A stretch of 64,000 nt of DNA from a virus: the IMG/VR virus record IMGVR_UViG_3300031857_000025; one strand, 5' to 3'. Every line of letters starts with the position of its first letter. The first letter of the stretch is position 1. Positions 221-55,322 of the stretch are shown one piece after another. Made by a program: the position numbers and the translations under genes. A model generated the notes under the pieces. That model saw only the letters and a list, made by a program, of their open reading frames with translations. It made no database searches and was not told where the DNA came from.

Positions 221-1147
221 ATGAGTAAGTTATCGGTTATTTCTCTTCTCGAATCTGTTCTTGGTAAAAGTCGCCAATCAACTGACGATAATTTAGCTTT
301 TCATTGTCCATTCTGTCATCATCATAAACCTAAGTTAGAAGTTAATATCGTAACTCAACATTGGCATTGTTGGGTATGTAATGCGGCTGGTAGAAAGATA
401 CCTATCTTATTTCGTAAACTTAATACACCTCGAGAAAAAGTAGCTCAATTAATTAAACTACTAGATGGTGTAGAATATAAGCCTACTAAGACTACAACGG
501 ATACACCTGTAGTTGAACTTCCTAAAGAATATCGACCATTATGGGTTATGGATAAAGCTAATCCTGAGTATCGTAACGCCGTACGTTATTTACTTAACCG
601 TGGTATTACTATTCATGATATACTAAAATACAGAATTGGATATTGTGAAACTGGTCAATATTCCGGTAAGATAATTATTCCTAGTTATGATGCTAATGGT
701 AGTCTTAATTATTTTGTAGGTCGTGCCTATTATGAATCAGATGGCATGCGTCATAAGAATCCAAAAGTATCAAAAGATATAATTGGATTTGAACTGCATA
801 TAAACTGGAATATGCCAATTATATTAGTAGAAGGCGCATTTGATGCGATTGCTATTAAACGTAATGTTATTCCATTATTTGGTAAAACTATTTCAAATAC
901 ACTTAAGAAACGTATTGTAGAACGTAAAGTGAAAACTATATACATATGTCTAGATCTAGATGCTAGAAAACAAGCACTTGAAACAGCTGAGTATTTTATT
1001 AATAACGGTATAGATGTATACTTTGTAGAACTAACTGGTAAAGATCCTAGTGAATTAGGATTTGAACAGACTAAACATATACTAGATGCTACAACTAGAT
1101 TAACAGAACAGAATTTAATGCAAGAAAAGATATTATGCGCACTATAG
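221..1147 (+). CDS. DnaG-type DNA primase (Zn finger + TOPRIM)
   Basis: CPFC...HCWVC zinc-binding motif, GR motif, TOPRIM LVEGAFD and CLDLDA, KDP motif. Confidence 0.9.
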   Translation: MSKLSVISLLESVLGKSRQSTDDNLAFHCPFCHHHKPKLEVNIVTQHWHCWVCNAAGRKIPILFRKLNTPREKVAQLIKLLDGVEYKPTKTTTDTPVVELPKEYRPLWVMDKANPEYRNAVRYLLNRGITIHDILKYRIGYCETGQYSGKIIIPSYDANGSLNYFVGRAYYESDGMRHKNPKVSKDIIGFELHINWNMPIILVEGAFDAIAIKRNVIPLFGKTISNTLKKRIVERKVKTIYICLDLDARKQALETAEYFINNGIDVYFVELTGKDPSELGFEQTKHILDATTRLTEQNLMQEKILCAL

Positions 1148-4100
1148 ATATTGGGTTACCTACCATAGATAAAATTTTTCATATTGCTGATGTACATGTA
1201 CGTAATGTAAAACGTCATACAGAATATGAGCAAGTATTTAAACGATTATATAAATACATTAAGAAACATAAAACGGATAATAGTGTAATTTACGTTGCTG
1301 GCGATATTGTACATGCTAAGACAGATATGTCACCGGAACTAGTACATTGTGTATCAGATTTCTTTAGCAGTTTAGCGGCCATTGCGCCTACATTAATTAT
1401 TACTGGTAATCATGATTGCAACTTAAATAACTCCCATCGTCTAGATGCCATTTCCCCTATAGTTAAAGCCTTAAATGACTCCAATATACACTATCTTAAA
1501 GATAACGGTATATACTATATTTCAGGCATACACTTTAACGTTATGTCAGTGTTTGAAAAGCCAGCGAACTATATAAAAGCTAGTGATTTTACAGGTAATT
1601 ATAAGATTGCATTTCACCATGGTGCAGTAAATTCTGCAGAAACTGATATGGGCATGACATTGAGTAATACTCATGTTACAACTGAATTGTTTGAAGGGCA
1701 TGATTTAGTATTATTAGGTGATATTCATAAACCGCAATTCTTAAATAAGAATAAGACAATTGCATATGCTGGTAGTTTAATACAACAAAATTTTGGCGAA
1801 GGACTTCACCATGGCATCATGGTATGGGATCTGGCTACACGTTCTTGTGAATTTGTTGAAATAGGAAATGATTATGGTTATTATACATTTGATATTGATA
1901 ACGGAGTAATACAAAACCCAGCTACGGTAATGCCTAAAAAACCTAGAATTCGTTTAAAGGTTAAAGATACAGATTCGGGTACGCTTAAAACGATAGTAGC
2001 TGAAATAAAACATAAATACAAAGTACAAGAAATTACCATACAGAAAGTTAATCCATTATCATCTGTTACTGCTGGTAAAAGAATATCATTTGGTAATGTA
2101 CGTGATGTAGAATGGCAAAACACGGTAATATCAGATTACCTATCTGACGAATTAGCATTAGATGACGCCATGCTTGACTGTGTACGTCATATCAATCGTA
2201 CGGTATTTTCAAAACTACCAGATTCTGAGTTAACTCGCAATGTAGTATGGGTGCCAAAATATTTTGAATTTAGTAACATGTTTAGTTATGGCGATGATAA
2301 TCATGTTGACTTTGCTAATATGTCAGGTACATATGGATTGTTTGCTCCTAATGCTTCTGGTAAGTCTACATTGTTAGATGCTTTAGCATTTTGTTGTTTT
2401 GATAAATGTAGTCGTACTAATAAAGCTGTTCATGTATTGAATAATAAATGCGATCGTTTTGCTAGTAAATTTACATTTGATCTAGACGGTAAGACATATG
2501 TAATTGAACGTAATGGTAAAAAGCAAAGTAACGGGCATGTTAAAGTAGATGTAGAATTTTATCATGTAGATGATACTGGTAATATTACATCATTAAACGG
2601 TGACCAACGTGATTCTACTAATAAAATAGTACAACAGTACTTAGGTACATATGAAGACTTTGTATTAACGGCACTATCACTGCAAAATAATAATACTGGA
2701 TTTATTGACATGTCTCAAAAAGATCGTAAAGACTTATTGAGTCAGTTTTTAGATATCAATGTATTTGAAAAACAGTATCAGATCGCAGCTGATGATAGTA
2801 AAGACACTGCCGCATTAATACGGGAATATAAACGAACTGATATAGGTACAATATTGGCAGATGCTGAACGTATCATATCACATACATCTCAAAGTTACAA
2901 TGAATTGTTAACTGAAAAACAAACAGTTGATCGTATGAAGGATGATATTAATGATCAGATTATTGATCTGTCAAAACAACTACGTCCTATAGATGATAAT
3001 ATAAAACACCCAGAGCAACTACAAACGGCATATCATACCATGCTGTCAGAATTAGATACATTAAAAGAGACTGTTACGGCTATTGAAACAGATATTAACA
3101 ATCAACAAGATATTGTAGATTCATGGCGTAATAATGTAGCAGAATATGACATTACAGAAATACGTAGTAATATTATTACTGAAGAACAAAATAAAAAACG
3201 TTTAGCTGAGTTAACTACAAAATTACAAGTATTACAACAACAAATATCACATGCTAACCGTATGGTTGATAAATTAGATAATCATAAGTGGGATCCAAAT
3301 TGTGAATATTGCATGGCTAATCCATGGTTACATGATACTAAATTGGAGGCCGAAAAATTACCAAAACTACAAGAAGAACATGATAATCTATTAATTGAAA
3401 TTGCCGATATTAAAGTTAATTTTCCAACAGTAAGTGCTACTAATTTATTAAATGGGTATCAAGTAGCAGAACAACGTTTACATACTGAAGAACAAAAACT
3501 ATCGACACTGACAAATAAACTAAATAGTACATTATTAACAGTACAATCTAGTGAAGATAAGATTACTCGATTAGTAGAGCTAATAAAAACAGCTGAAGAC
3601 CGTATTACTGATATTGAAACTAATAAACAACTAGAATCTGAAATATCAGAACTTCAAAGTGAAGTAACATACTTAACATCAGAACTTAAACAAGTAGATA
3701 ATCGTTTATTAGAATGTTCTGGTAAACTTCATGCTGCGGAAACAGCTAAGCAAAATGCTATACGAGATATTGAGCGGTTAACTGAGTTAGAAGTACAGTA
3801 CAAAGCATATGAATATTATCTACAAGCAGTTAAACGTGACGGCGTACCGTATCAATTAATAGCTCGAGCATTACCACAAATTGAAGCCGAAATAAATAAT
3901 ATATTAACGCAGATAGTAGATTTTACTGTTATATTAAATACTGATGGTAAAAATATACATGGCTTTATTGTATATGATAATGATAATTATTGGCCAATGG
4001 AACTAACATCCGGTATGGAAAAGTTTATTGCATCTCTTGCAATACGTACGTCATTGATTAACGTCAGTAGTTTACCTAGACCTAATTTCTTAGCTATTGA

Positions 4101-4287
4101 TGAAGGGTTTGGTGTACTTGATTCGGATAATTTGAATAGTATGTACATGTTGTTCGACTACCTTAAATCTCAGTTTGGTTTTATTATGTGTATATCTCAT
4201 ATTGATGCTATGCGTGATGTAGTTGATAAGCTTATTGAGATTAAAAAAGAAAACGGGTACTCTAAAATAAATTACTCATATTTATAA
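1135..4287 (+). CDS. Fused Mre11/SbcD nuclease - Rad50/SbcC ATPase (gp47-gp46-like)
   Basis: Phosphoesterase motifs DVH, GD, GNHD, GDIH; Walker A PNASGKST; coiled coil with CEYC zinc hook; signature SGMEK; Walker B IDEGFGVLD; ISH loop. Confidence 0.93.
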   Translation: MRTIDIGLPTIDKIFHIADVHVRNVKRHTEYEQVFKRLYKYIKKHKTDNSVIYVAGDIVHAKTDMSPELVHCVSDFFSSLAAIAPTLIITGNHDCNLNNSHRLDAISPIVKALNDSNIHYLKDNGIYYISGIHFNVMSVFEKPANYIKASDFTGNYKIAFHHGAVNSAETDMGMTLSNTHVTTELFEGHDLVLLGDIHKPQFLNKNKTIAYAGSLIQQNFGEGLHHGIMVWDLATRSCEFVEIGNDYGYYTFDIDNGVIQNPATVMPKKPRIRLKVKDTDSGTLKTIVAEIKHKYKVQEITIQKVNPLSSVTAGKRISFGNVRDVEWQNTVISDYLSDELALDDAMLDCVRHINRTVFSKLPDSELTRNVVWVPKYFEFSNMFSYGDDNHVDFANMSGTYGLFAPNASGKSTLLDALAFCCFDKCSRTNKAVHVLNNKCDRFASKFTFDLDGKTYVIERNGKKQSNGHVKVDVEFYHVDDTGNITSLNGDQRDSTNKIVQQYLGTYEDFVLTALSLQNNNTGFIDMSQKDRKDLLSQFLDINVFEKQYQIAADDSKDTAALIREYKRTDIGTILADAERIISHTSQSYNELLTEKQTVDRMKDDINDQIIDLSKQLRPIDDNIKHPEQLQTAYHTMLSELDTLKETVTAIETDINNQQDIVDSWRNNVAEYDITEIRSNIITEEQNKKRLAELTTKLQVLQQQISHANRMVDKLDNHKWDPNCEYCMANPWLHDTKLEAEKLPKLQEEHDNLLIEIADIKVNFPTVSATNLLNGYQVAEQRLHTEEQKLSTLTNKLNSTLLTVQSSEDKITRLVELIKTAEDRITDIETNKQLESEISELQSEVTYLTSELKQVDNRLLECSGKLHAAETAKQNAIRDIERLTELEVQYKAYEYYLQAVKRDGVPYQLIARALPQIEAEINNILTQIVDFTVILNTDGKNIHGFIVYDNDNYWPMELTSGMEKFIASLAIRTSLINVSSLPRPNFLAIDEGFGVLDSDNLNSMYMLFDYLKSQFGFIMCISHIDAMRDVVDKLIEIKKENGYSKINYSYL

Positions 4288-15591: not shown

Positions 15592-15636
15592 TAACTATAT
15601 TTATTAAAAAGATACGTACAAACAGGATGTATAAAC

Positions 15637-16485
15637 ATGAGTAAGATTAAACATGCGAAAGTAAAGAATACTGGTTTAATTTTTGAGTTACTCGTACGCC
15701 AAGTAGCATCGGATACTATGAACAATAAAGATTCGGCAGCACTTCGTATAATTAAAAGAAATTTTAGAAAGAACTCAGAATTATCAAAAGAGTTAAAATT
15801 ATACCGTTCTTTACATGAAGAAACGTTTAACTCACAGCGTAAAGCAGAAATGTTTTTAGAAGCAGTACTTCGTACAAAACGCAGTATTAACGAAACAGCT
15901 TTAAAGCGTGAAAAATATAATTTAATAAAAGAAATACGTAACAATTATAACATTGAAGATTTTTTCAAATCACGTGTTAATAATTATAAACTACATGCTT
16001 CGATTTATAAATTATTTGAATTTGCAGAATCAGATGATCCAAAAGAATATGTAGAAAATCGATTTTCATTAACCGAATATATTTGTACAGTACGTAAGAC
16101 AGATACTGAAGCAGTACCGGTATTAACTAATGAAGATAAAGATGTTCGATTATTAGCATCTAAATTAATCATTGATCGTTTTAACGAAAAATATGCTACA
16201 TTAAACGAATCACAAAAACGTTTACTACGCGAATATATTAATAATGTAACTAACTCAGTGACACTTAAACAGTTTATTGTTAAAGAATCTGCTATGTTAC
16301 GTGATACTATTAATAAACTAAAAACTACAGTACCTAGCAAAGTTATACGTATCAAATTAAATGAAGTCGCTAATTTATTAACTACAATGAGCCGTCGTAA
16401 TAATATCGAAGATAAAGATATATTAACAATGCTTCGTTACTATGAATTAGTAGAAGAACTTAAAAGCATTAAAGGAGCAAAATGA
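15637..16485 (+). CDS. Hypothetical helical protein of the head module
   Basis: 282 aa ORF after portal; late box 15597-15604. Confidence 0.65.
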   Translation: MSKIKHAKVKNTGLIFELLVRQVASDTMNNKDSAALRIIKRNFRKNSELSKELKLYRSLHEETFNSQRKAEMFLEAVLRTKRSINETALKREKYNLIKEIRNNYNIEDFFKSRVNNYKLHASIYKLFEFAESDDPKEYVENRFSLTEYICTVRKTDTEAVPVLTNEDKDVRLLASKLIIDRFNEKYATLNESQKRLLREYINNVTNSVTLKQFIVKESAMLRDTINKLKTTVPSKVIRIKLNEVANLLTTMSRRNNIEDKDILTMLRYYELVEELKSIKGAK

Positions 16486-16784
16486 GTTTTTATCCTGGAT
16501 ATACAGCCACAGAACAAAATCAATTTACTAGACTAGGGCATCCTGGTAAGTATGTGTCATCGTATTTATATACTAGTGGTCAAGTAGACTTTACTGGTAG
16601 TAATTATGGATATGGTAGTATTATTGTTAAGACACCTGGTAATGCAACCGCTAGTTTATCGGACGGCGGAGAAATTATATTAAATGACTTAACAGCCGGT
16701 GTTATATATGACTTGTCAGTGAGACAGATTAAAGGTGGATCGGCTAGTGTTATTTACGTACTAAAGCGTCAAACAGGATTCTAA
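16482..16784 (+). CDS. Hypothetical small beta-rich protein
   Basis: AAGGAG upstream; overlaps the stop codon of the previous gene. Confidence 0.6.
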   Translation: MSFYPGYTATEQNQFTRLGHPGKYVSSYLYTSGQVDFTGSNYGYGSIIVKTPGNATASLSDGGEIILNDLTAGVIYDLSVRQIKGGSASVIYVLKRQTGF

Positions 16785-16785
16785 T

Positions 16786-17607
16786 ATGGGCCTACGTAAA
16801 GATATAGAAAAGAATTTTCGTCGGTTAATGGAAGCAGTAGACCGCGTTTCTGATAAAGAAGCCAACACGGATTTTGAAGACTTGGACGATAAAGATTTAG
16901 ACAATGATGGCGATACTGATAGTTCAGATCGATATCTAAAAAAGCGTTTAAGTAAAGTTGCTAAAATGGACGAAGAAGAAGAGTTAGATGAAATGTCTAC
17001 GACTGCAGGTGTACCTGGCTATGATTCGCCAATGGCATTTGGTAAAGCTGATGATGATACTATTGAAGCTGATGGTTGGAAAAAAACTCCTAAGACAAAT
17101 AAATTCTTTAAACGTATGGAAAGTAAAACATCTGATTATAAAAAAATGATGTCCGAAATGTACGGTGTTAACCCTAGTATTACAGAATCTAGTAATCCAG
17201 AAATGGATAAGTTAGTTACGGCATTTGTTGATAAGATAGCGGATAGAAATGGGTATCCAACATCAGAAGCTATCATATCAATATTTGAAGCACTTAAGCG
17301 AAAAGGATTTTTACATAAAAGCGTTGAATACAAATCACCTTCAGGCTATAGTATTGATGAAGCAGTATCATATCGTGAATACAAAAAAGATGAATCTGCT
17401 ACACCATCACAAAAGGTAAACAAAAGTATTATGGAAGTTAATCGTATGTTAGCTGAAATAGAACGAGTAGTAGCACATAACTTAAAATTAAAAAATGAAT
17501 CTGGTGTTAATTCTGGACAATTCTGGAAATCAACAGGGGCTCGTTTTTCAAAAATTAACGAACGTATAGTTCGTATTTCAAATAGATTAAAGGAATTATC
17601 AAAATGA
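16786..17607 (+). CDS. Hypothetical modular head-associated protein
   Basis: DLDNDGDTD motif; segments separated by LME, LDE, ITE, IDE. Confidence 0.6.
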   Translation: MGLRKDIEKNFRRLMEAVDRVSDKEANTDFEDLDDKDLDNDGDTDSSDRYLKKRLSKVAKMDEEEELDEMSTTAGVPGYDSPMAFGKADDDTIEADGWKKTPKTNKFFKRMESKTSDYKKMMSEMYGVNPSITESSNPEMDKLVTAFVDKIADRNGYPTSEAIISIFEALKRKGFLHKSVEYKSPSGYSIDEAVSYREYKKDESATPSQKVNKSIMEVNRMLAEIERVVAHNLKLKNESGVNSGQFWKSTGARFSKINERIVRISNRLKELSK

Positions 17608-18419
17608 GTAATTTTTTAGATTGGCGTGATTATACAAGACAGCCACATATCAAACAATTAATTGAAACAAAAGGCGTTGAAGCTGCCCGTATACAATTCG
17701 TAAAAGAAAGTAATAAGGCATTATGGGATGATCCATTTATTATAAACGAATCATATGAATCACCTGGTACGTCGGTATCATCTAATAATTCAGCTGCGGT
17801 CGGTACTAATCCACAGTTGATTAGCGTAACAGCTGAAACTCAGAGCTTTGCATGGGCATCTGGATTGACTAATAATATTACCGGTTCTAATCATCCGACA
17901 AGTGCTAGTATACATGAATATTATTTTGATGTAACTGCTTATAACGGAGGAGTTGACTATACATATGACCACGTTGATACATTTAAAAAATTCAGATTTT
18001 TAATTGTATCTGGAGCAGCTGGATATACATATAGTAATACAACTGGTTTAGCAGGATTAATTACTGCATCTTATACAAGATCTGAAACTGGTAATATTAC
18101 TGGTAGTTTGTTAAACAGATTTAAAGATGCCGTTAATACCCAAGCCGCCGGAGCAGTAGTTGCTGGATTTACAAATACAATCGCACCAGCTGATTTATTT
18201 ACTGTAACATTAACAGCAGGAAGTGGCTCTTTGACAATTGAACATGACAATGAAGGTGGTGTACCGGATCCATATACAAACTTTATATCAGCTACAGCAT
18301 CAATCACAGTAACTACAAACGGTACAGATAAGATATATGATGAGACAGGTACGTATTATGATACAATTTTAGTAGATGGTGCTGTGTATCCATATACATC
18401 ATTAACTCGTAAAGGATAA
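17604..18419 (+). CDS. Hypothetical structural protein
   Basis: Charged leader ending IINE, followed by an S/T/G-rich beta-type region. Confidence 0.55.
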   Translation: MSNFLDWRDYTRQPHIKQLIETKGVEAARIQFVKESNKALWDDPFIINESYESPGTSVSSNNSAAVGTNPQLISVTAETQSFAWASGLTNNITGSNHPTSASIHEYYFDVTAYNGGVDYTYDHVDTFKKFRFLIVSGAAGYTYSNTTGLAGLITASYTRSETGNITGSLLNRFKDAVNTQAAGAVVAGFTNTIAPADLFTVTLTAGSGSLTIEHDNEGGVPDPYTNFISATASITVTTNGTDKIYDETGTYYDTILVDGAVYPYTSLTRKG

Positions 18420-18420
18420 T

Positions 18421-19026
18421 ATGAGCAAACAACTTTTAGTTGATTATACAGTATTTGAAGTATCACCTCAACAAATAAACGAATCATTAACACAAAATAA
18501 CGGACGTTTAATTGTTAATGGAGTACTACAACGTGCTAATGCTCAGAATCAAAACGGCCGTGTATATCCAATGGAAATATTACAACGTGAAGCAAAAAAA
18601 TATAGTCAAACATTTATTGCGGAACGTAGAGCATTAGGAGAACTAGACCATCCAGATTCATCTGTTGTTAATTTGAATAACGTTAGTCATAATGTATTAG
18701 GTATGAATTGGAATGGTAACGATCTTGTCGGTACAGTAGAAATTCTCAATACACCGTCAGGTAATATACTTAAAGCATTATTTCAATCAGGAATTCGTTT
18801 AGGTATTTCATCACGCGGCATGGGGTCAGTTAAAGAAGTAATGCGTGAAGGAAATGCTACATTAGTAGTACAAGATGACTTTGATTTGATTGCATTTGAC
18901 TTTGTAAGTAATCCATCCACCCACGGAGCTTTCTTATCACCCGTCAATGAGTCAGTTAATAAAGTAATAAATGACAAATACGGTCATATAAATCGTATTA
19001 TACAAGATATCATAATGGAGTTTTAA
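18421..19026 (+). CDS. Prohead protease (T4 gp21-like)
   Basis: NQNGRVYP, GELDHP (His), GISSRGMGS (Ser), DFVSNPS (Asp). Confidence 0.96.
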   Translation: MSKQLLVDYTVFEVSPQQINESLTQNNGRLIVNGVLQRANAQNQNGRVYPMEILQREAKKYSQTFIAERRALGELDHPDSSVVNLNNVSHNVLGMNWNGNDLVGTVEILNTPSGNILKALFQSGIRLGISSRGMGSVKEVMREGNATLVVQDDFDLIAFDFVSNPSTHGAFLSPVNESVNKVINDKYGHINRIIQDIIMEF

Positions 19027-19027
19027 T

Positions 19028-19288
19028 ATGCCATCATTATTAGAATTAGCACATACATCACAATACGGGCCTATCAATCCAGGACAAATGGGAACTGGAT
19101 ATACTACTGGTCCTAATGCAGAACCATTGGTTAACATGCAATTAGGTAACCCAGTTGCTAGTTCTGTATCATTTGATAGTTTGGAACAAGCATCTCATAA
19201 CAGTCTTTATGGTCCTTATAATACGCCAGGTCAGCCAGGCGCTGGATTTATTCCAGATCCATTTGCAAATATACCGCCTGAACTATAA
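19028..19288 (+). CDS. Small Pro/Gly-rich protein with two internal repeats
   Basis: SLLELAHTSQYGPINPGQMGTGY vs SLEQASHNSLYGPYNTPGQPGAGF. Confidence 0.6.
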   Translation: MPSLLELAHTSQYGPINPGQMGTGYTTGPNAEPLVNMQLGNPVASSVSFDSLEQASHNSLYGPYNTPGQPGAGFIPDPFANIPPEL

Positions 19289-19296
19289 GGATTAGT

Positions 19297-19635
19297 ATGA
19301 ACTTAAAACATAAGTATAATAAACTGTTTACGGGTAAGCCAAAGTCTAATGATCAGTTACTTACGGAAGGTACTGTATTTTTAGGTATTGGAAACGCTAA
19401 ACGTAAAATTAATGAAGCAGAAAATGCCTCATATTATCAGGATCTTATGTCACAATTAGATGAAGCTGTAGCACAACTTAATCAGGTAATAGCTGATATA
19501 GATGCTCAGACAGAAGATGATATGGCATATGATTATGAAGTGAAAGCTGCACGTACAACAATTAACCGTTACGGTTCAGCTGCAATGAAAAATATAGCAG
19601 GTATTAGAAAAGTACTTAGAGGATTATCAAAATGA
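19297..19635 (+). CDS. Hypothetical helical protein
   Basis: AAGGA upstream; LTE and INE sites. Confidence 0.6.
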   Translation: MNLKHKYNKLFTGKPKSNDQLLTEGTVFLGIGNAKRKINEAENASYYQDLMSQLDEAVAQLNQVIADIDAQTEDDMAYDYEVKAARTTINRYGSAAMKNIAGIRKVLRGLSK

Positions 19636-20042
19636 AAAAGTTTGAACAACAATTACTACGTAGTATCTTAAATGAAAAGTATTTAGGAGAAACTGAAAAA
19701 CCTAAAATGACTAAAGAGGAAAAGAAAGCTTTCTTGGAAGCAGTATCTCAATATCATAAGTTAGGAGAAATGGTTTACCGTAACAATCAGTTATCAGAAT
19801 TATCAGAGACATTAAGTAACATTGTTACTACTGCAGAAAATTTAACTATGCAAGAGTCTGAACATTGGTTTGATAATGTTACGGTTAGCCGTCATATGAA
19901 GCAAATACAAGAAGCCTTTAAGGTATTTGAAAAGACTGCCGGTGAGATGTCAGGCATGCAACAACGTTTAGAAGCTGCATACGAAGATATTGGTACAGTA
20001 CTAAACAAGTACTATAATGTAAATAATGCATTAGAAGGATAA
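19632..20042 (+). CDS. Hypothetical coiled-coil protein of the head module
   Basis: Leader ending ILNE; coupled to the previous gene. Confidence 0.65.
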   Translation: MKKFEQQLLRSILNEKYLGETEKPKMTKEEKKAFLEAVSQYHKLGEMVYRNNQLSELSETLSNIVTTAENLTMQESEHWFDNVTVSRHMKQIQEAFKVFEKTAGEMSGMQQRLEAAYEDIGTVLNKYYNVNNALEG

Positions 20043-20043
20043 A

Positions 20044-20358
20044 ATGAATTTCATAACAAGTTACTGGAGAGAGTTATTGATATTGGTATTATTTGTATCA
20101 TTGTTAATAACTCTTTCTATGTTATATAATAAACCAACTGTTACGGTAACTATAGAAGATACCAAACAGATTGAACGCCTTAGGGAACAAGTTAATAAGT
20201 TAAACTCAGATCTATCAAATCTACAAACGGCTTATGATAATAAACAAGGTGAAACAGTTACACGAATAAAAAAAATAAAAGAACGCAATGCTGAAGAAAT
20301 TAACGCTCTTGATAAGTTGTCTACTGCTGGCCGCGATAGTGTCTGGACAACATTTTAG
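20044..20358 (+). CDS. Membrane-anchored coiled-coil protein, i-spanin-like
   Basis: N-terminal TM (LLILVLFVSLLITLSML), then coiled coil; 3' end overlaps the next gene. Confidence 0.5.
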   Translation: MNFITSYWRELLILVLFVSLLITLSMLYNKPTVTVTIEDTKQIERLREQVNKLNSDLSNLQTAYDNKQGETVTRIKKIKERNAEEINALDKLSTAGRDSVWTTF

Positions 20359-20722
20359 TCCTAAACGTATAGTATATAATAACGACTCCTTAGTTTGTTT
20401 TTCATATAAACAAGAGTTGGATCTATTACGTAAAATTAAATTATGTAACGGCGTTGAAATTGAATTAACAGAGACTCGCTCGTTATGGAATGATTGTAAT
20501 AAGCAATTAACCATAGAACGTAAATATTACAAAGATTTAAACAAGTTATATACAGACCTAGAAACGGAAGCAGATAGTCTTCGTACTAAATATCAGAATG
20601 AAATTGTATTACATGCTAATACTAAAGCATTATTAGATACTGAAACCAATCGTAAGCGTAACTGGAGAATGGCAGCAATAGCCGAAGGCATAATAATAGT
20701 TGCTATTTTTCTTGTTAAATAA
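20288..20722 (+). CDS. Exported coiled-coil protein with C-terminal TM, spanin partner candidate
   Basis: Signal peptide MLKKLTLLISCLLLAAIVSG-Q; C-terminal hydrophobic AAIAEGIIIVAIFLV; 71 nt overlap with the previous ORF. Confidence 0.5.
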   Translation: MLKKLTLLISCLLLAAIVSGQHFSPKRIVYNNDSLVCFSYKQELDLLRKIKLCNGVEIELTETRSLWNDCNKQLTIERKYYKDLNKLYTDLETEADSLRTKYQNEIVLHANTKALLDTETNRKRNWRMAAIAEGIIIVAIFLVK

Positions 20723-20742
20723 AGAAATAGTTATTATAATAA
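20712..20742 (+). promoter_or_regulatory. Putative host-type promoter for bS21
   Basis: TTG(20712-14)-N20-TATAATAA(20735-42). Confidence 0.45.
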
Positions 20743-20757
20743 TCAAAAATAAGTTAT

Positions 20758-21015
20758 ATGAATTACATAAGTAAAAAACAAAAACATTTTGCAAGCATCC
20801 AACCCGGAGTAGAAATTGGAGCTCGAGTAGTAAAAATTGGAGACCGTGGAGACATTTCATTTGCTTTACGTAAATGGAAAAAGGGTCTTAAAGATTCTGG
20901 TAAATTAGAAATCCTAAAGGAACGGCAAGAATATATTCCTGCTTCAGTTACTAAAAGGATTAATAGAGAAAGGGCTAGGTTTATAGCTCAAAGAGAATCA
21001 GAACGAAACGGTTAA
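20758..21015 (+). CDS. rpsU: Phage-encoded ribosomal protein bS21 with N-terminal extension
   Basis: DISFALRKWKK...SGKLEILKERQEYIPASVTKR...A matches the bS21 pattern I..ALR..K....G......R..Y..PS..R; basic, 85 aa. Confidence 0.88.
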   Translation: MNYISKKQKHFASIQPGVEIGARVVKIGDRGDISFALRKWKKGLKDSGKLEILKERQEYIPASVTKRINRERARFIAQRESERNG

Positions 21016-21030
21016 CAAAACAAAGTTTAT

Positions 21031-21059
21031 AAAAAGATGTCAGTAACGGCATCTTTTTT
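21031..21059 (+). terminator. Intrinsic terminator after bS21
   Basis: AAAAAGATGTC-AGTAAC-GGCATCTTTTTT hairpin (one G-U pair) with U tract. Confidence 0.75.
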
Positions 21060-21186
21060 ACTATTCGTTATATATATAATTGTTAATGATACCGTAACAG
21101 TCTATTATACGGTCACTCAAATTATATTATACAAATTATTAAGACTCTGAATAGTCTTATTTCCAAATTAAATACGAGGACAAATT

Positions 21187-22062
21187 ATGAACAAACTCTT
21201 AAAAGAGGCAATCGCAGATGCTAAAGCTGTTCGTGAGACTGCATTAGCAAACGCAAAAATTGCATTAGAAGAAACATTCAGACCAAGACTTCAAAACATG
21301 ATTTCTGCCCGTTTAGCTGAAGAAGAGGATATGGACGACGACATGGATGACATGGACGATGAAGAAATGCCAGCTCCTGCTCCTGCTGAAGAAGGATATG
21401 AAAATGATGAAGATGGTACTCCTAATCCAGGACCAGCTATTGAAGAAGAAGATGACATGGACGGTGTAGATGAAGAATTAGATCTAGAAGCTATCATCCG
21501 TGAACTTGAAGGCGATGAAGAAGAAATGGCTACCGAAGGTGAAGAAGAAGAAATGCCTATGGAAGGTGAAGAAGAAGAAATGGCTAATGAGGCTGAGGAC
21601 AAAGAAATGGACGAGGAAATTGATATCAATGAAATCATCCGTTCTTTAACTGAAGAAGAAGATTCTGAAGAAATGACTAACGAAGAAGAAGATTCTGAAG
21701 AAACGCCAAGTAAGGATCTAGAAGAAGCTTATCGTGTTATCAAATTCATGCAATCTAAACTTAATGAAGTAAATCTTCTTAATGCAAAATTATTATTTTC
21801 TAACAAGTTGTTTAGAAATTATGAGTTAAATGAATCTCAAAAGATGAAAGTAATTGAAAACTTTGACCGTGCAAATAGCTTGCGTGAAGTTAAATTAGTT
21901 TACAGTACTATCTGTGAGTCATTGACAACTAAAAAAGCAAAAAAACAAATCAAAGAAAGCTATGCTTCTAAACCAACCCGTAGTACTGCTCCAAAGAAAG
22001 AAATTCTTTCTGAAGGAAATGCTTTAGCTGCTCGTTGGAAGAAATTAGCTAACTTAAAGTAA
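21187..22062 (+). CDS. Prohead scaffolding/core protein (gp22-like)
   Basis: Very acidic low-complexity middle, helical ends, directly upstream of MCP. Confidence 0.8.
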   Translation: MNKLLKEAIADAKAVRETALANAKIALEETFRPRLQNMISARLAEEEDMDDDMDDMDDEEMPAPAPAEEGYENDEDGTPNPGPAIEEEDDMDGVDEELDLEAIIRELEGDEEEMATEGEEEEMPMEGEEEEMANEAEDKEMDEEIDINEIIRSLTEEEDSEEMTNEEEDSEETPSKDLEEAYRVIKFMQSKLNEVNLLNAKLLFSNKLFRNYELNESQKMKVIENFDRANSLREVKLVYSTICESLTTKKAKKQIKESYASKPTRSTAPKKEILSEGNALAARWKKLANLK

Positions 22063-22083
22063 AAAATTAACAAAAGGAAAAAA

Positions 22084-23787
22084 ATGAATTTAAACTCATT
22101 ATTACCTCATGAATCAAATGCAACTCAACATGCTGCTGCGATCGCTTTGGAAAAGAAGTGGCAGAAGACCGGTTTGTTGGAAGGTTTGAACGGAGAGGTT
22201 GAAAGACGTGGTATGGCTGTTCTTTTAGAGAACCAAGCCAAGCAACTTGTAACTGAAGCAAACCAAACTGGTACTGGTGCAAATGCAGAAGATTGGAACG
22301 GTGTTGCCCTTCCATTGGTTCGTCGTATCTTTGCTGAAATTGCTGCGAAAGATTTCGTTAGTGTTCAGCCAATGAACTTGCCATCTGGTCTAGTGTTCTT
22401 CTTGGATTTCAAATATGGAAACAAGCAAGGAACTACTGGTACAGCTGGTGGTAACGATTTCTTATCCGGTGTTGGTCGTACTTCACAAAACGATTCTGTA
22501 TTCGGTGTAACTGATGCTACTAAAGGTACTACTGCCGGAACCGAAGGTCTTTATGGCGCTGGTCGTTTTGGATATACTATTAACGATTATAGCTCATCTC
22601 AATTAACTAATATAACGCCTGCTACTGCAACTACTGCTATTGCAACTACTAGATTTGCAACCGGCTCAGTTAGCCCAGCTGATGTTAACTTTGACACTGA
22701 ATTCTTGAATAGCACTGGTTCAACTGCTGCTTTAATTCAAACTTTAGATGTTAAGTTGTCTGACCTTGATGGTGCTGATACTAACGGTGTACGTGCATTT
22801 AACTTAGTTGATGCTGACGGTGATATTACAGCTGTATATCCTCAATTCACTAAATTGGTAACTCGTGCAGCTACTAATGATACTGTTCGTTTCGTTGTTA
22901 AATTAGCTTCCGCCGGTGTTACAGTAACACCAAACGTAGTATACCATAAGCAACCAGGTTCAAGCACTCGTGGTGATTTTGAAGATGTAAATGCAATCGG
23001 TGTAAACGGAGCAACGCCAGGTTCAACTTTGGATATTCCAGAAATTAACTTGGAATTGCGCTCTGAGGCTATTGTTGCTAAGACACGTAAGTTAAAGGCA
23101 ATCTGGAGTCCAGAATTTGCTCAAGACTTGAATGCTTATCATTCAATTGACGCTGAAGCAGAATTGACTTCAATGTTATCTGAGTATATCTCTCAAGAAA
23201 TTGATTTAGAGATCTTGGATATGTTGATTCAAAATGCCCAAACAACTGAGCGTTGGTCAGCTCAAATTGGTTTTGTATATGACGCAGCTACTACTTCATT
23301 CGTGAATGGAGCAATCTCTGGTCAAGCATACAACCAAGGAACTTGGTTCCAAACTTTAGGAACTAAGATTCAAAAGGTATCAAACCAAATTCACCGTTTA
23401 ACTTTACGTGGTGGAGCTAACTTCTTAGTATGTTCTCCAACTGTAGCAACTATCCTAGAGTCTATCCCAGGATATGCTGCTGATACTGACGGTGATAAGA
23501 TGCAGTTTGCAATGGGTGTTCAGAAAGTTGGTGCTATTAACAATAGATTCCAAGTTTATAAGAACCCATACATGACTGAAAATACCATCTTAATGGGATA
23601 CCGTGGAAGTCAATTCTTGGAAACAGGTGCTGTATATGCTCCATATATTCCATTGATCATGACTCCATTAGTGTACGATCCAACTAACTTCACTCCAAGA
23701 AAAGGTGTGATGACTCGTTACGCTAAGAAAATGGTACGTCCAGAATTCTATGGTAAAGTATTTGTACATGGTTTAGACCGCGTATAA
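22084..23787 (+). CDS. Major capsid protein (T4 gp23-like)
   Basis: LLENQ, LVRRIF, VQPMNLPSGLVF, AKTRKLKA.WS.E.AQDL.A.H.IDAE.EL, YAPYIPL, F.P.KG.MTRY. Confidence 0.97.
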   Translation: MNLNSLLPHESNATQHAAAIALEKKWQKTGLLEGLNGEVERRGMAVLLENQAKQLVTEANQTGTGANAEDWNGVALPLVRRIFAEIAAKDFVSVQPMNLPSGLVFFLDFKYGNKQGTTGTAGGNDFLSGVGRTSQNDSVFGVTDATKGTTAGTEGLYGAGRFGYTINDYSSSQLTNITPATATTAIATTRFATGSVSPADVNFDTEFLNSTGSTAALIQTLDVKLSDLDGADTNGVRAFNLVDADGDITAVYPQFTKLVTRAATNDTVRFVVKLASAGVTVTPNVVYHKQPGSSTRGDFEDVNAIGVNGATPGSTLDIPEINLELRSEAIVAKTRKLKAIWSPEFAQDLNAYHSIDAEAELTSMLSEYISQEIDLEILDMLIQNAQTTERWSAQIGFVYDAATTSFVNGAISGQAYNQGTWFQTLGTKIQKVSNQIHRLTLRGGANFLVCSPTVATILESIPGYAADTDGDKMQFAMGVQKVGAINNRFQVYKNPYMTENTILMGYRGSQFLETGAVYAPYIPLIMTPLVYDPTNFTPRKGVMTRYAKKMVRPEFYGKVFVHGLDRV

Positions 23788-23843: not shown

Positions 23844-23851
23844 ATATTTAT
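23844..23851 (+). promoter_or_regulatory. Late-type promoter box ATATTTAT
   Basis: Directly after the MCP terminator, 16 nt before phoH. Confidence 0.6.
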
Positions 23852-23867: not shown

Positions 23868-24548
23868 ATGGACCAACCAACCAAGTTATCAAATTTAGAA
23901 AAGCGTAAGCCTAAGAATCCTATTAAGTTTAAATTGGAACTTAATGAAGAGCAAAAGGTAGCTAAGTCATTAATATTTGATAATCCAGTAGTATTGATCA
24001 AAGGACAAGCAGGTTCTGGTAAAACTCTACTTGCATGCCAATGTGCATTAGATATGTTTTTTAAACGTGAAATTGAAAAAATAGTTATCACAAGACCGAC
24101 GGTTGCAAAAGAAGATATCGGATTCCTACCTGGCGACTTAAAAGAAAAAATGGATCCATGGTTAGCTCCTATCTATGCTAATCTATACATGTTATATAAT
24201 AGAGAAGGTGTAGATAAAATGGCAGCTGAAGGTAATATTGAAATTGTGCCATTTGCATTTATGCGTGGACGTACTTTTCCAAATACATTTGTACTTGTAG
24301 ACGAATGCCAGAACATAACACATAGTCAGACTGAAATGATGTTAGGTCGTTTAGGTAAGGGCGGTAAGATGGTATTCTGTGGTGATATTAGTCAAACAGA
24401 CTTAAAAAATAAAAAAGATTCTGGTATTAGTTTCTTTACTCGTCTTGAAGAAAATGTTAAAGGTGTACGTGTTTGTACTCTTAAGACTAATCACCGACAT
24501 GAAATTGTTGAGCCAATCCTTAATATTTACTCAGAATACCGTGATTAA
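23868..24548 (+). CDS. phoH: PhoH family ATPase
   Basis: GQAGSGKT, GFLPGDLKEKMDPW, FMRGRTF, DECQN, GD.SQ.DL. Confidence 0.96.
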   Translation: MDQPTKLSNLEKRKPKNPIKFKLELNEEQKVAKSLIFDNPVVLIKGQAGSGKTLLACQCALDMFFKREIEKIVITRPTVAKEDIGFLPGDLKEKMDPWLAPIYANLYMLYNREGVDKMAAEGNIEIVPFAFMRGRTFPNTFVLVDECQNITHSQTEMMLGRLGKGGKMVFCGDISQTDLKNKKDSGISFFTRLEENVKGVRVCTLKTNHRHEIVEPILNIYSEYRD

Positions 24549-32297: not shown

Positions 32298-33242
32298 ATG
32301 GACGGCTTTAGTCATTTACCTAATAAAATAGACGCTAATACTTTTGTATTTTATGCAAATGCTACTACAACTACATCTGGAAGCTTCCAAGCCTGGAATG
32401 TACCTGAGTATGCTTCATTTCTACATTTCACTGTAATTGGTGGAGGAGGTGGAGGAGGCGGTGGTTGTGGCGGTGTACCAAATGCATCAGGACGGGTAGG
32501 AGGTGGCGGCGGAGCTCCAGCTGGACTAGTAGCAGTTTCTATACCTACTATTTTACTTCCTAAAACTTTATATTTACAAGTAGGATATGGAGGTGCGCCT
32601 GGTACGGGAAGTAATAACCAAGCTATAGCAGGTCAGTCTGGTAATGCAGGTACTATTTCATATATATGTTTATATCCAGAAATCAATCCAGGATCTGTTT
32701 TAATGCAATCAAGCAATACCGCTCCAGGAGGTGGAGTAGGAGGTTCTGTAACAGGAGCAACGGGTACACCTATAACAATTGCAGATACGACTAACTTAAA
32801 GTGGTTAGGTATAGTAGGAAATACAGTAGCCCAAACTGCCGGAGGTGCTAGTGCAGTTGGTGGCGGTGCTAGTGTGACGTATGCTGGTTTATTAACTGGC
32901 GGTGCAGGAGGTGGATCTAAACCTGCTAGCAACAACAACGGAAATGCAGGAGGTGGTATAACCATGACTAGCATAAGTGCATATGTAACAACGGCTATTA
33001 ATGGTGGAGCAGGAGGAACAAACCCAGCAGCTGGTAGTAATGGCAGTAATGGATATTTTTCATGGCGGCCATTTATAGCTACTGGTGGAGCTGGTGGCGG
33101 TGGAGGATCTGTAAGTGCAAACGGAGGAAATGGAGGGAAAGGAGCTTATGGTTGTGGAGGAGGTGGAGGTGGAGCAGCCGGCACTATCGGTGGAACTGGA
33201 GGATCAGGTGGTGATGGTCTAATAATAATAGCAGTAAGTTAA
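32298..33242 (+). CDS. Glycine-rich tail adhesin-like protein 1
   Basis: W..P...IGGGGGGG start, poly-Gly runs, GG.GGDGL end. Confidence 0.7.
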   Translation: MDGFSHLPNKIDANTFVFYANATTTTSGSFQAWNVPEYASFLHFTVIGGGGGGGGGCGGVPNASGRVGGGGGAPAGLVAVSIPTILLPKTLYLQVGYGGAPGTGSNNQAIAGQSGNAGTISYICLYPEINPGSVLMQSSNTAPGGGVGGSVTGATGTPITIADTTNLKWLGIVGNTVAQTAGGASAVGGGASVTYAGLLTGGAGGGSKPASNNNGNAGGGITMTSISAYVTTAINGGAGGTNPAAGSNGSNGYFSWRPFIATGGAGGGGGSVSANGGNGGKGAYGCGGGGGGAAGTIGGTGGSGGDGLIIIAVS

Positions 33243-53977: not shown

Positions 53978-54009
53978 TTTGGTAAATTAAGATATTGATC
54001 TTATATTTA
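53978..54009 (+). promoter_or_regulatory. Host-type promoter resembling the Bacteroidota -33/-7 consensus
   Basis: TTTG(53978-81)-N20-TATATTTA(54002-09) vs consensus TTTG / TAnnTTTG. Confidence 0.55.
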
Positions 54010-54014
54010 GCTAA

Positions 54015-55322
54015 ATGATAATCGAATCTGATATTGACTTCCAACGTGTTCAAGCGTCTTTAAGATCTGGTGATAGCTTCTGGATTCCGGTATACTCTGA
54101 CAAGTATCGTCATTATGTAAATAATAGAATTAGTTTTGTTTACATATATAGTATAGCTGATAATGAAGACTACATTGTTCCATTCCATCATATGGATTGT
54201 TTGAACCTCAAATCCGAACAACTACAACACCTTACAAGTCAACATAATATCTTTGTATTAGGTAAAAAGCGATTCCAATATACGTACGGTAATACATGTT
54301 ATGACGCCGATCTGTTTGCCTGGTGGCATACCAATAAAATGTTACCGTTAGATGAAACTAATACTGCTGCTCATGACATGTGGAGCAAGTGGTGGCATAA
54401 TGAAACCAATACAAACGATTGGTTACCAATAACTCGTCATCTGGAACGATGTGTTAACATGCGTATAGAGTTTCTAAAACTATATAATACAGTTGAGATA
54501 TCTGATGAGTATAAGACATATGATATATCCGTATGTAAAGCATTTGGTGATATTGAACAGTATGGATTATATCAGTCAACAAAACAACTAGCTCATACCG
54601 AATATAATTTATATACAAGTACAGGTCGTCCTAGTAATAAGTTTGGTGGTATTAACTATGCAGCTATGAATAAGGAAGATGGTAGTCGTAAAATATACTC
54701 GAGTAGATTTGCAAAAGGTATGTTAGTTGAATATGATTATGATGCATATCATGTACGGTTGATTGCCAGTTTAATTGAATATACATTACCGACTGGTTCA
54801 GTTCATACTTATTTTGGTAAACAGTATTTTGATACGGATGATTTATCAGAAGAACAGTATGACCAAAGCAAACAAATAACATTCCGATTGTTGTACGGAG
54901 GTATTGATGATGACTTTGCTCAGATACCATTCTTTAACAAAGTACGTCAGTTCATTAACAAGTTATGGAAAGAATTCAAAGTATCAGGTTACATAACTAC
55001 TCCTATATATAAACGGAGAATGTTTAAAAATAATCTGCATGATATGAATGCCAATAAATTGTTTAACTATTTGTTACAGGCAACTGAAACAGAACATAAT
55101 ATCAAACAAGTTTTAGCTGTAAATAACTTACTAATAAACTATCAAAGCCGATTAGTATTGTATACATACGATTCATTTTTATTTGATTTTGATATGACCG
55201 ATGGTAAACATGTATTATGTGATATCAAGAACACATTATCAGATAATGGTCAATATCCAGTTAAACTAAAAGCTGGAGTAGACTATGACAGTATGCATGA
55301 TATGACTAACCGACTTAGTTAA
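54015..55322 (+). CDS. Compact, divergent family A DNA polymerase
   Basis: TSTGRPS, motif A EYDYDAYHVRL, motif B SKQITFRLLYGG, NYLLQATE, motif C YTYDSF. Confidence 0.85.
   Translation: MIIESDIDFQRVQASLRSGDSFWIPVYSDKYRHYVNNRISFVYIYSIADNEDYIVPFHHMDCLNLKSEQLQHLTSQHNIFVLGKKRFQYTYGNTCYDADLFAWWHTNKMLPLDETNTAAHDMWSKWWHNETNTNDWLPITRHLERCVNMRIEFLKLYNTVEISDEYKTYDISVCKAFGDIEQYGLYQSTKQLAHTEYNLYTSTGRPSNKFGGINYAAMNKEDGSRKIYSSRFAKGMLVEYDYDAYHVRLIASLIEYTLPTGSVHTYFGKQYFDTDDLSEEQYDQSKQITFRLLYGGIDDDFAQIPFFNKVRQFINKLWKEFKVSGYITTPIYKRRMFKNNLHDMNANKLFNYLLQATETEHNIKQVLAVNNLLINYQSRLVLYTYDSFLFDFDMTDGKHVLCDIKNTLSDNGQYPVKLKAGVDYDSMHDMTNRLS

Follow-up and report, generated by a model that had tools for sequence, protein, structure and literature searches.

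A phage-encoded bS21 and Shine-Dalgarno-led late genes in a T4-like aquatic phage: a possible re-tuning of host ribosomes

Introduction

Of all ribosomal proteins, bS21 is the one that phage genomes encode most often. Here we describe a bS21 gene in the IMG/VR virus record IMGVR_UViG_3300031857_000025, analyzed as a single 64,000-nucleotide stretch (hereafter the window), together with the Shine-Dalgarno (SD) sites that lead many late genes of the same phage and of its bS21-bearing relatives.

Phage bS21 has been described most fully by Chen et al. (2022, ISME Commun, PMC9723584), in freshwater jumbo myoviruses whose hosts were predicted to be Bacteroidetes. These authors proposed that the phage protein substitutes into host ribosomes and favors phage messages late in infection; they argued that the anti-SD stays blocked and did not report SD sites on late genes (PMC9723584). 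In Flavobacterium johnsoniae, bS21, bS18, and bS6 sequester the anti-SD, and rpsU is autoregulated through its SD (Jha et al. 2021, PMC7797042; McNutt et al. 2023, PMC9976891). The contacts of bS21 there involve Tyr54 and Ile55, through stacking on A1534 and packing against the 16S tail; this aromatic-Ile pair has been described as a Bacteroidetes signature (PMC7797042). F. johnsoniae ribosomes without bS21 gain SD-dependent translation, and an exchange of bS21 has been the subject of speculation (McNutt et al. 2023, PMC9976891). Two further systems are relevant: the bS21 of Pelagibacter phage HTVC008M is reported to enter Escherichia coli ribosomes in vivo (Mizuno et al. 2019, as cited in PMC9976891), and in Francisella tularensis, which has bS21 paralogs, swapping one homolog for another in the ribosome changes the genes expressed (PMC9578407).

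SD sites before late genes and their association with phage bS21

We found an SD 4-mer at −16 to −4 of 32 of the 63 gene starts in the window; the rate is 11% at other ATGs and 9% in shuffled leaders. The G content of the leaders is highest at −11 to −7, AAGGA is 16-fold enriched, and the spacers between SD and start measure 5–10 nucleotides (nt). Typically the motif reads AAAGGA(G), the complement of UCCUUU at 1537–1542 of the 16S tail (numbering after PMC7797042). All 18 starts named as SD-bearing in an initial annotation of this DNA carry AGGA, AAGG, or GGAG. Nine consecutive head genes, from 16482 to 20044, have an SD and no promoter of their own, and the SD motifs before operon-internal genes sit inside the upstream coding sequence; the motif therefore belongs to translation and not to a promoter. 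Sites of the AAAAGGA or AGGAG type lead the genes for abundant late proteins (capsid, scaffold, prohead protease, PhoH, sheath, and tube). As the initial annotation had stated, TerL and portal, which are low-copy late genes, have no SD, nor do primase, polA, and helicase, and ssb has an SD as well as an early-type promoter. Among the window genes directly behind the late box ATATTTAT, 12 out of 16 have an SD. Flavobacterium phage vB_FspM_immuto (hereafter immuto) is the closest cultured relative, with major capsid protein (MCP) and TerL ~58% identical to those of the window phage. Under the same gene-calling it has an SD at 4% of 230 starts against a background of 19%: its starts avoid SD.

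SD use differs both between temporal classes and between phages with and without bS21. We counted genes behind late boxes and behind early promoters in four bS21-bearing genomes (the window, G001, G004, and G005) and in two complete genomes that lack bS21 but have the same promoter motifs (immuto and G008). In the former, 54 of 95 late-box genes have an SD but only two of 26 early-promoter genes (P = 4e-6, Fisher); in the latter, the counts are 0 of 57 and one of 37. The mean energy of pairing with the anti-SD follows the same division. Against a background of −2.2 kcal/mol, the late genes of the bS21-bearing phages average −3.8 kcal/mol and their early genes −0.7 kcal/mol, the early genes thus pairing with the 16S tail less well than background, and the late genes of the bS21-less phages average +0.8 kcal/mol. 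This comparison, by promoter class and with bS21-less relatives, is part of the check that the initial annotation had proposed; it found SD use unequal between early and late genes and weak in the phages without bS21.

The association extends to 110 distinct loci with enough flanking sequence, obtained from four capsid-based scans. The SD fraction is at most 0.27 in every one of the 45 bS21-less loci and averages 0.54 over the 65 bS21-bearing loci. The sole SD-rich locus without a nearby bS21 gene (L208) carries the gene elsewhere on its complete contig, and the complete genomes of immuto, G007, and G008 have no bS21 and few SD sites. Single orthologous genes behave likewise. PhoH has an SD in 31 of 34 bS21-bearing loci (18 of 20 in the clade of the window phage, 13 of 14 in others) and in none of 24 bS21-less loci; for MCP the figures are 53 of 64 (27 of 30 and 26 of 34) and eight of 46. 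For the scaffold gene, 23 of 24 clade loci show an SD. The presence or absence of an SD is a conserved property of the individual gene, with SD sites at MCP, scaffold, protease, and PhoH and none at TerL and portal, a pattern that looks like a translation enhancer for abundant proteins. In short, we observe SD-rich genomes only with bS21, but not bS21 always with SD. The comparative pattern favors a functional link between bS21 and SD-led late translation, which we rate as an even bet. In the literature searched, we found no paper linking phage bS21 with SD-led late genes.

Our preferred reading, based on sequence comparison and with a probability that we put at roughly 0.5, is that phage bS21 re-tunes host ribosomes toward SD-led late messages. 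Host ribosomes, if of the Bacteroidota kind, would hide the 16S tail under bS21, bS18, and bS6. While still unmodified, they would make phage bS21 from an early promoter and an SD-less leader, ahead of the late burst and without depending on it. The phage protein would then replace host bS21 in 30S subunits, these subunits would become able to use SD sites, or better at using them, and translation of the SD-led late messages would rise. A stronger form of this reading is more tentative: phage bS21 might turn SD-blind Bacteroidota ribosomes into SD-reading ones and so provide a timed switch, with native ribosomes early and phage-modified ribosomes late.

The bS21 gene as a separate expression unit

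The initial annotation had described bS21 as a stand-alone gene with a host-type promoter (TTG-N20-TATAAT) and a terminator of its own, and without late box or SD; all of these elements were recovered (Table 1). The promoter is a variant of the phage early class. TTG-N19–21-TATA[AT]T occurs within 90 nt upstream of bS21 in 17 out of 30 clade loci, compared with 25 of 487 (5%) other genes, and a late box stands upstream of bS21 in one of the 30 loci. In the window, bS21 has no ATATTTAT box upstream, the nearest being at 15597 and 23844, and its leader, AAAAATAAGTTAT, contains no SD. The leader end AAGTT(AT) is kept before bS21 in 25 of the 30 clade loci and may represent an SD-independent start context. 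We note that AAGTT(AT) directly before ATG is common among SD-less genes of the window (at 20747–20757 and before 29424, 33244, 46755, and 51388) and that many immuto genes have GTT right before the ATG.

Table 1. Positions of the bS21 cassette and of other features in the window
Feature	Coordinates	Strand	Remarks
Early-class (host-type) promoter-like site TTGTTA-17-TATAAT (= TTG-N20-TATAAT)	20712-20740	+	10/12 matches
SD-less leader ending AAATAAGTTAT before ATG	20741-20757	+	
Phage bS21 gene	20758-21015	+	85 aa; profile search, alignment, model
Intrinsic terminator	21031-21059	+	11-bp stem, 6-nt loop, T run; -11.4 kcal/mol, z -3.2
SD (GAGGA) of scaffold gene 21187-22062	21176-21180	+	
SD (AAAAGGA) of major capsid gene 22084-23787	22072-22078	+	
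17 late boxes ATATTTAT upstream of genes	span 4278-57730	+	
Late boxes, first part	4278, 7822, 9505, 13667, 15597, 23844, 24680, 25080, 35132	+	
Late boxes, second part	39452, 42323, 44516, 45364, 46481, 55323, 55352, 57723	+	
Late box ATATTTAT of the head-gene operon, which continues into bS21	15597-15604	+	
Late box ATATTTAT before phoH 23868-24548	23844-23851	+	followed by SD (AAAAGG)
Early-class promoter TTG-N20-TATATTTAG before polA	53979-54010	+	ATG at 54015, no SD
Primase and fused Mre11/Rad50-like nuclease	221-4287	+	window start
Head, neck, and tail genes	between nuclease and replication block	+	
Replication block (polA, ssb, RecA-like gene, exonuclease, DnaB)	from 54015 onward	+	

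The terminator was not picked up in a strict consensus scan because its stem has few G–C pairs. A hairpin with a T run, differing in stem sequence from locus to locus, follows bS21 in at least 16 of the 30 clade loci. bS21 is a separate expression unit within the head-gene cluster, and this layout is conserved across the clade. There is no terminator between the late operon start at 15597 and bS21, so that late read-through into the gene is possible. Almost all bS21-bearing loci have the gene 1.3–1.6 kb upstream of MCP, and across the clade the distance is 1.3–1.5 kb; in the window, it stands between the end of the prohead protease gene at 19026 and the start of MCP at 22084. Another bS21-bearing subclade (L301, L311, L269, L320, L292, L305, and L251) has a different control layout: upstream of bS21, a late box is directly followed by a strong hairpin with a T run and then by the start codon.

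The lack of an SD at the bS21 gene is the rule among the relatives. An SD motif is missing in 58 of 64 loci (present in six), while more than half of the neighboring genes have one (P = 2e-14, binomial, kinship among loci being ignored). Being SD-less, the gene would escape the SD-based feedback described for host rpsU, and its leader fits a protein that native ribosomes must make.

The bS21 protein

The open reading frame (ORF) at this position encodes a divergent bS21 with an N-terminal extension. Taken alone, the window protein stays below the family thresholds, with 22.2 bits against Pfam Ribosomal_S21 (PF01165; cut-off 27 bits) and an E-value of 0.029 against TIGR00030, under the NCBIfam cut-off. 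An exhaustive profile search found 86 relatives of ~80 residues. The profile built from 51 of them matches 39 distinct solved bS21 sequences, the two best being 9i5v_9 (1.5e-14) and the F. johnsoniae chain 7jil_z (5e-13), both with the Bacteroidota-type tyrosine; 50 of the 51 relatives match PF01165. Profile search also shows the phage Mel-JY01 and the genome LR756508 to encode bS21. A tblastn search of the window protein against 50,697 phage records gave no match at an E-value of 1e-3; the protein is short and divergent.

The core motif ALRxFKR reads ALRKWKK in the window protein, and the KPS/T motif, which is KPS or KPT in most relatives, reads IPAS. The ~20 N-terminal residues that are extra with respect to cellular bS21 contain a conserved KKQKHF-SI-PG motif. 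The AlphaFold (AF2) model has a mean predicted local distance difference test score of 89.5 and consists of a short hairpin, two helices, and a long C-terminal helix; the extra N-terminal residues are modeled with good confidence as a short helix. A Foldseek search of this model against the PDB gave no significant match, although two bS21 chains rank first (E > 1). A C-terminal part much less basic than in SD-using phyla marks bS21 of the Bacteroidota type; the window tail after IPAS, with seven basic and three acidic residues (net +4), falls between the F. johnsoniae tail and the strongly basic tail of E. coli bS21.

Residues F75 and I76, in the C-terminal helix, correspond in the alignment to F. 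johnsoniae Tyr54 and Ile55, in agreement with the earlier placement of a Phe at the position of the host Tyr that contacts the anti-SD. By this alignment, window-clade bS21 carries the Bacteroidota-type residue pair that is predicted to lock the anti-SD.

Early and late promoters

The late box ATATTTAT is strand-specific in the window (24 copies on the + strand, one on the − strand), stands 21–41 nt before the start codon, and is common to the window phage and immuto. Early promoters are of a second kind. The polA promoter of the window belongs to the same class as the early promoters of immuto (GTTG-N-TATATTTAGG, ~30 early genes) and of G001 (GGTTGG-N-TATCTTTAG). We take this class to match the Bacteroidota −33/−7 promoter type (TTG, TAnnTTTG); its geometry is near that of sigma-70 promoters too, and the host is therefore not settled by the promoter alone. 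The strict Bacteroidota −7 box TAnnTTTG is not enriched in the window or in immuto, the phage early box being a variant, TAnnTT(T)AG.

Two early leaders deserve mention. Only 5 nt separate the −7 box TATATTTAG from the polA start codon that follows it (window 53979–54017), so that the polA message may be leaderless. In G001 (L092–L099), the early promoters are followed by a common leader, ATATAACCTTTAAAGA, which holds a palindrome (TCTTTAAAGA-like) and the anti-SD-like string CCTTT.

Alternative explanations and the host

A number of observations weigh against re-tuning of the ribosome by phage bS21. In the window alone, four of 12 replication genes have an SD compared with ~28 of 48 others, a difference that is not significant, the split being weak because few early genes are present there; the initial claim that SD sites are mostly late stands for the related complete genomes but not for the window by itself. 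Five bS21-bearing loci or lineages, including the 484-kb LR756508, are SD-poor, so bS21 looks necessary but not sufficient. On the MCP tree, the bS21 state changes five times, and among the five independent pairs SD use changes the same way in about four and the opposite way in none (P ~ 0.125, sign test, which cannot be significant with only five pairs); for fragmentary contigs, bS21 absence was scored within ~10 kb of MCP. In the protein, the window clade keeps Phe or Tyr plus Ile at the Tyr54/Ile55 lock positions, and window bS21 looks lock-competent; its sequence does not support a release of the anti-SD. Several SD-rich clades have no N-terminal extension. At the lock position, Arg, Leu, or Lys stands in SD-rich clades other than that of the window and likewise in SD-poor bS21-bearing lineages, and no residue (the Tyr54 position included) or extension separates SD-rich from SD-poor bS21-bearing lineages. 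As to the host, we found no direct host link for the window clade and, in the large ORFs of the window, no type IX secretion system (T9SS) sorting domain of the kind described below. Finally, the record of Mel-JY01 (L100/L351, PP395634.1), a phage with bS21 and an SD fraction of 0.54, names Microcystis elabens as host.

Some of these points would be accounted for if the anti-SD were freed by another phage function, or by loss of host bS21 after host shut-off, and phage bS21 were a host-like, lock-competent copy with a different job, such as SD-independent translation or the upkeep of ribosome integrity, escape from the SD feedback on rpsU, or countering a translation-stalling defense. We consider this unlikely, if worth serious attention. 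The preservation of the Tyr54–Ile55 pair as F75–I76 speaks for it, and from the same conservation Chen et al. argue that phage bS21 keeps the anti-SD blocked (PMC9723584); ribosomes that have no bS21 do read SD sites (PMC9976891), and some bS21-bearing lineages are SD-poor. What this explanation leaves unaccounted for is why we never observe SD-rich late genes without phage bS21. Nor did we find a candidate unlocking factor, and homologs of bS18 or bS6 were not found in four bS21-bearing genomes.

The nature of the host bears on a second alternative. The host of the window phage is likely a member of the Bacteroidota with SD-blind ribosomes, as judged from a cultured relative that infects Flavobacterium, the shared early promoter class, early genes that avoid SD, and the aromatic-Ile signature in window bS21. 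Related capsids occur in three contigs of metagenome-assembled genomes (MAGs) binned as Bacteroidales, Ignavibacteriaceae, and, presumably through a binning artifact, Woesebacteria; as host evidence these contigs are weak. G005, a complete, bS21-bearing, and SD-rich genome from another subclade of the MCP tree, encodes a 985-residue protein (L336:8398–11352) in which a T9SS Por_Secre_tail sorting domain (56 bits) takes up the C-terminal 65 residues, and secretion via a type IX system of the host is therefore implied. This domain was not found in G001–G004, G006, or G009–G011; a weaker one is present in the immuto-like G008.

It is nevertheless conceivable, though in our view improbable, that the host confounds the association: bS21-bearing clades would infect hosts with a usable anti-SD (non-Bacteroidota such as cyanobacteria, or unusual Bacteroidota), SD sites would just boost highly expressed late genes, and bS21 would travel along for unrelated reasons. 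The record for Mel-JY01 points this way, as do the lack of a direct host link for the window clade, the clustering of the traits on the tree with five contrasts only, and the resemblance of the early −7 box to the sigma-70 −10 hexamer. However, the early genes of the same phages avoid SD (two of 26), as they do in phages of known Flavobacterium host; the T9SS-sorted protein belongs to an SD-rich, bS21-bearing phage; window-clade bS21 has the Bacteroidetes-signature residue pair; and the MAG bins with related capsids are Bacteroidales and Ignavibacteriaceae, apart from the one Woesebacteria bin. In Mel-JY01 itself, bS21 occupies the same position as in its relatives, a group otherwise tied to Bacteroidota, and at least one promoter string in the early region, TTG-N20-TAGTTTTG, is exactly of the Bacteroidota type. 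Its recorded Microcystis host may deserve a check.

That AAAGGA is a late transcript start region or an RNA-processing or stability signal, and not a ribosome-binding site, is very improbable: many of the motifs do lie 5–15 nt past the ATATTTAT box, but their distance to the start is fixed at 5–10 nt while that of the box varies, they also precede operon-internal genes from within upstream coding sequence, they track expected protein abundance (MCP, scaffold, and PhoH, but not TerL or portal), and they match the 16S tail.

Gene layout of the window

All long ORFs of the window are on the + strand, and the G+C content is ~35%. The window phage is a T4-like aquatic phage, marked as a T4-like myophage by its Gp23-family capsid, its prohead protease, and its gene order. 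Complete or near-complete genomes of related phages measure ~153–180 kb, and the window capsid is ~55% identical to that of a huge-phage relative.

Several features of the layout lie outside the questions treated above. A single ORF of 1050 residues (1135–4287) joins an Mre11-like phosphoesterase to a Rad50/SbcC-like ATPase; the T4 counterparts of the two parts, gp47 and gp46, are separate genes. Between 32001 and 36000, the G+C content reaches 0.43 in a gene run that includes a glycine-rich-domain protein (32298–33242). No tRNA genes were found in the 64-kb window. Just upstream of bS21, inside the head module, there is an overlapping gene pair (20044–20358 and 20288–20722). The first product matches an Rz-like spanin family (phrog_739, E-value 3e-5), and a lipoprotein-like signal (LISC) opens the second; at this place in the head module, a spanin pair would not be expected.

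Comparison with known systems

So far, the published proposal goes no further than that phage bS21 somehow favors phage messages. With an SD code of the late class that is confined to bS21-encoding relatives, this proposal becomes directly testable in the established F. johnsoniae system. If true, re-tuning by phage bS21 would be a new kind of ribosome takeover, in which the hidden anti-SD of the Bacteroidota is a latent function open to viral exploitation and T4-like phages gain a timed translational switch. The frequency of bS21 in phages, the highest of any ribosomal protein, would then be explained as well.

At the level of transcription, the closest comparison is with T4, where late transcription uses a TATAAATA box read by gp55, gp33, and the clamp. 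In both phages, a short A/T-rich box without a −35 element heads the late genes. The window box, however, is ATATTTAT, which overlaps with the core of TATATTTAG, the −7 element that this phage has in its early promoters.

Pelagibacter phage HTVC008M resembles the window phage in encoding bS21, but belongs to another phage lineage with a host of another phylum, and no link to SD use is described for it. The F. tularensis homologs are cellular paralogs and not the product of a phage gene.

In the phages of Chen et al., as in the window, bS21 is found among the genes for TerL, portal, prohead protease, and capsid. Their genomes are 293–331 kb in size and have bS21 on the reverse strand, whereas window bS21 is on the gene strand. 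The coupling to SD sites, the SD-less cassette with an early promoter, and the N-terminal extension are undescribed in PMC9723584.

The comparison with F. johnsoniae concerns the ribosome itself. There, SD-led messages are well translated only when the 16S tail is unlocked, and the window protein keeps the Tyr54/Ile55 pair as Phe/Ile. The host rpsU gene has a strong SD and is under feedback control; the phage bS21 gene has none. In the host, the SD is found on one ribosomal gene, and in the phage on dozens of late genes.

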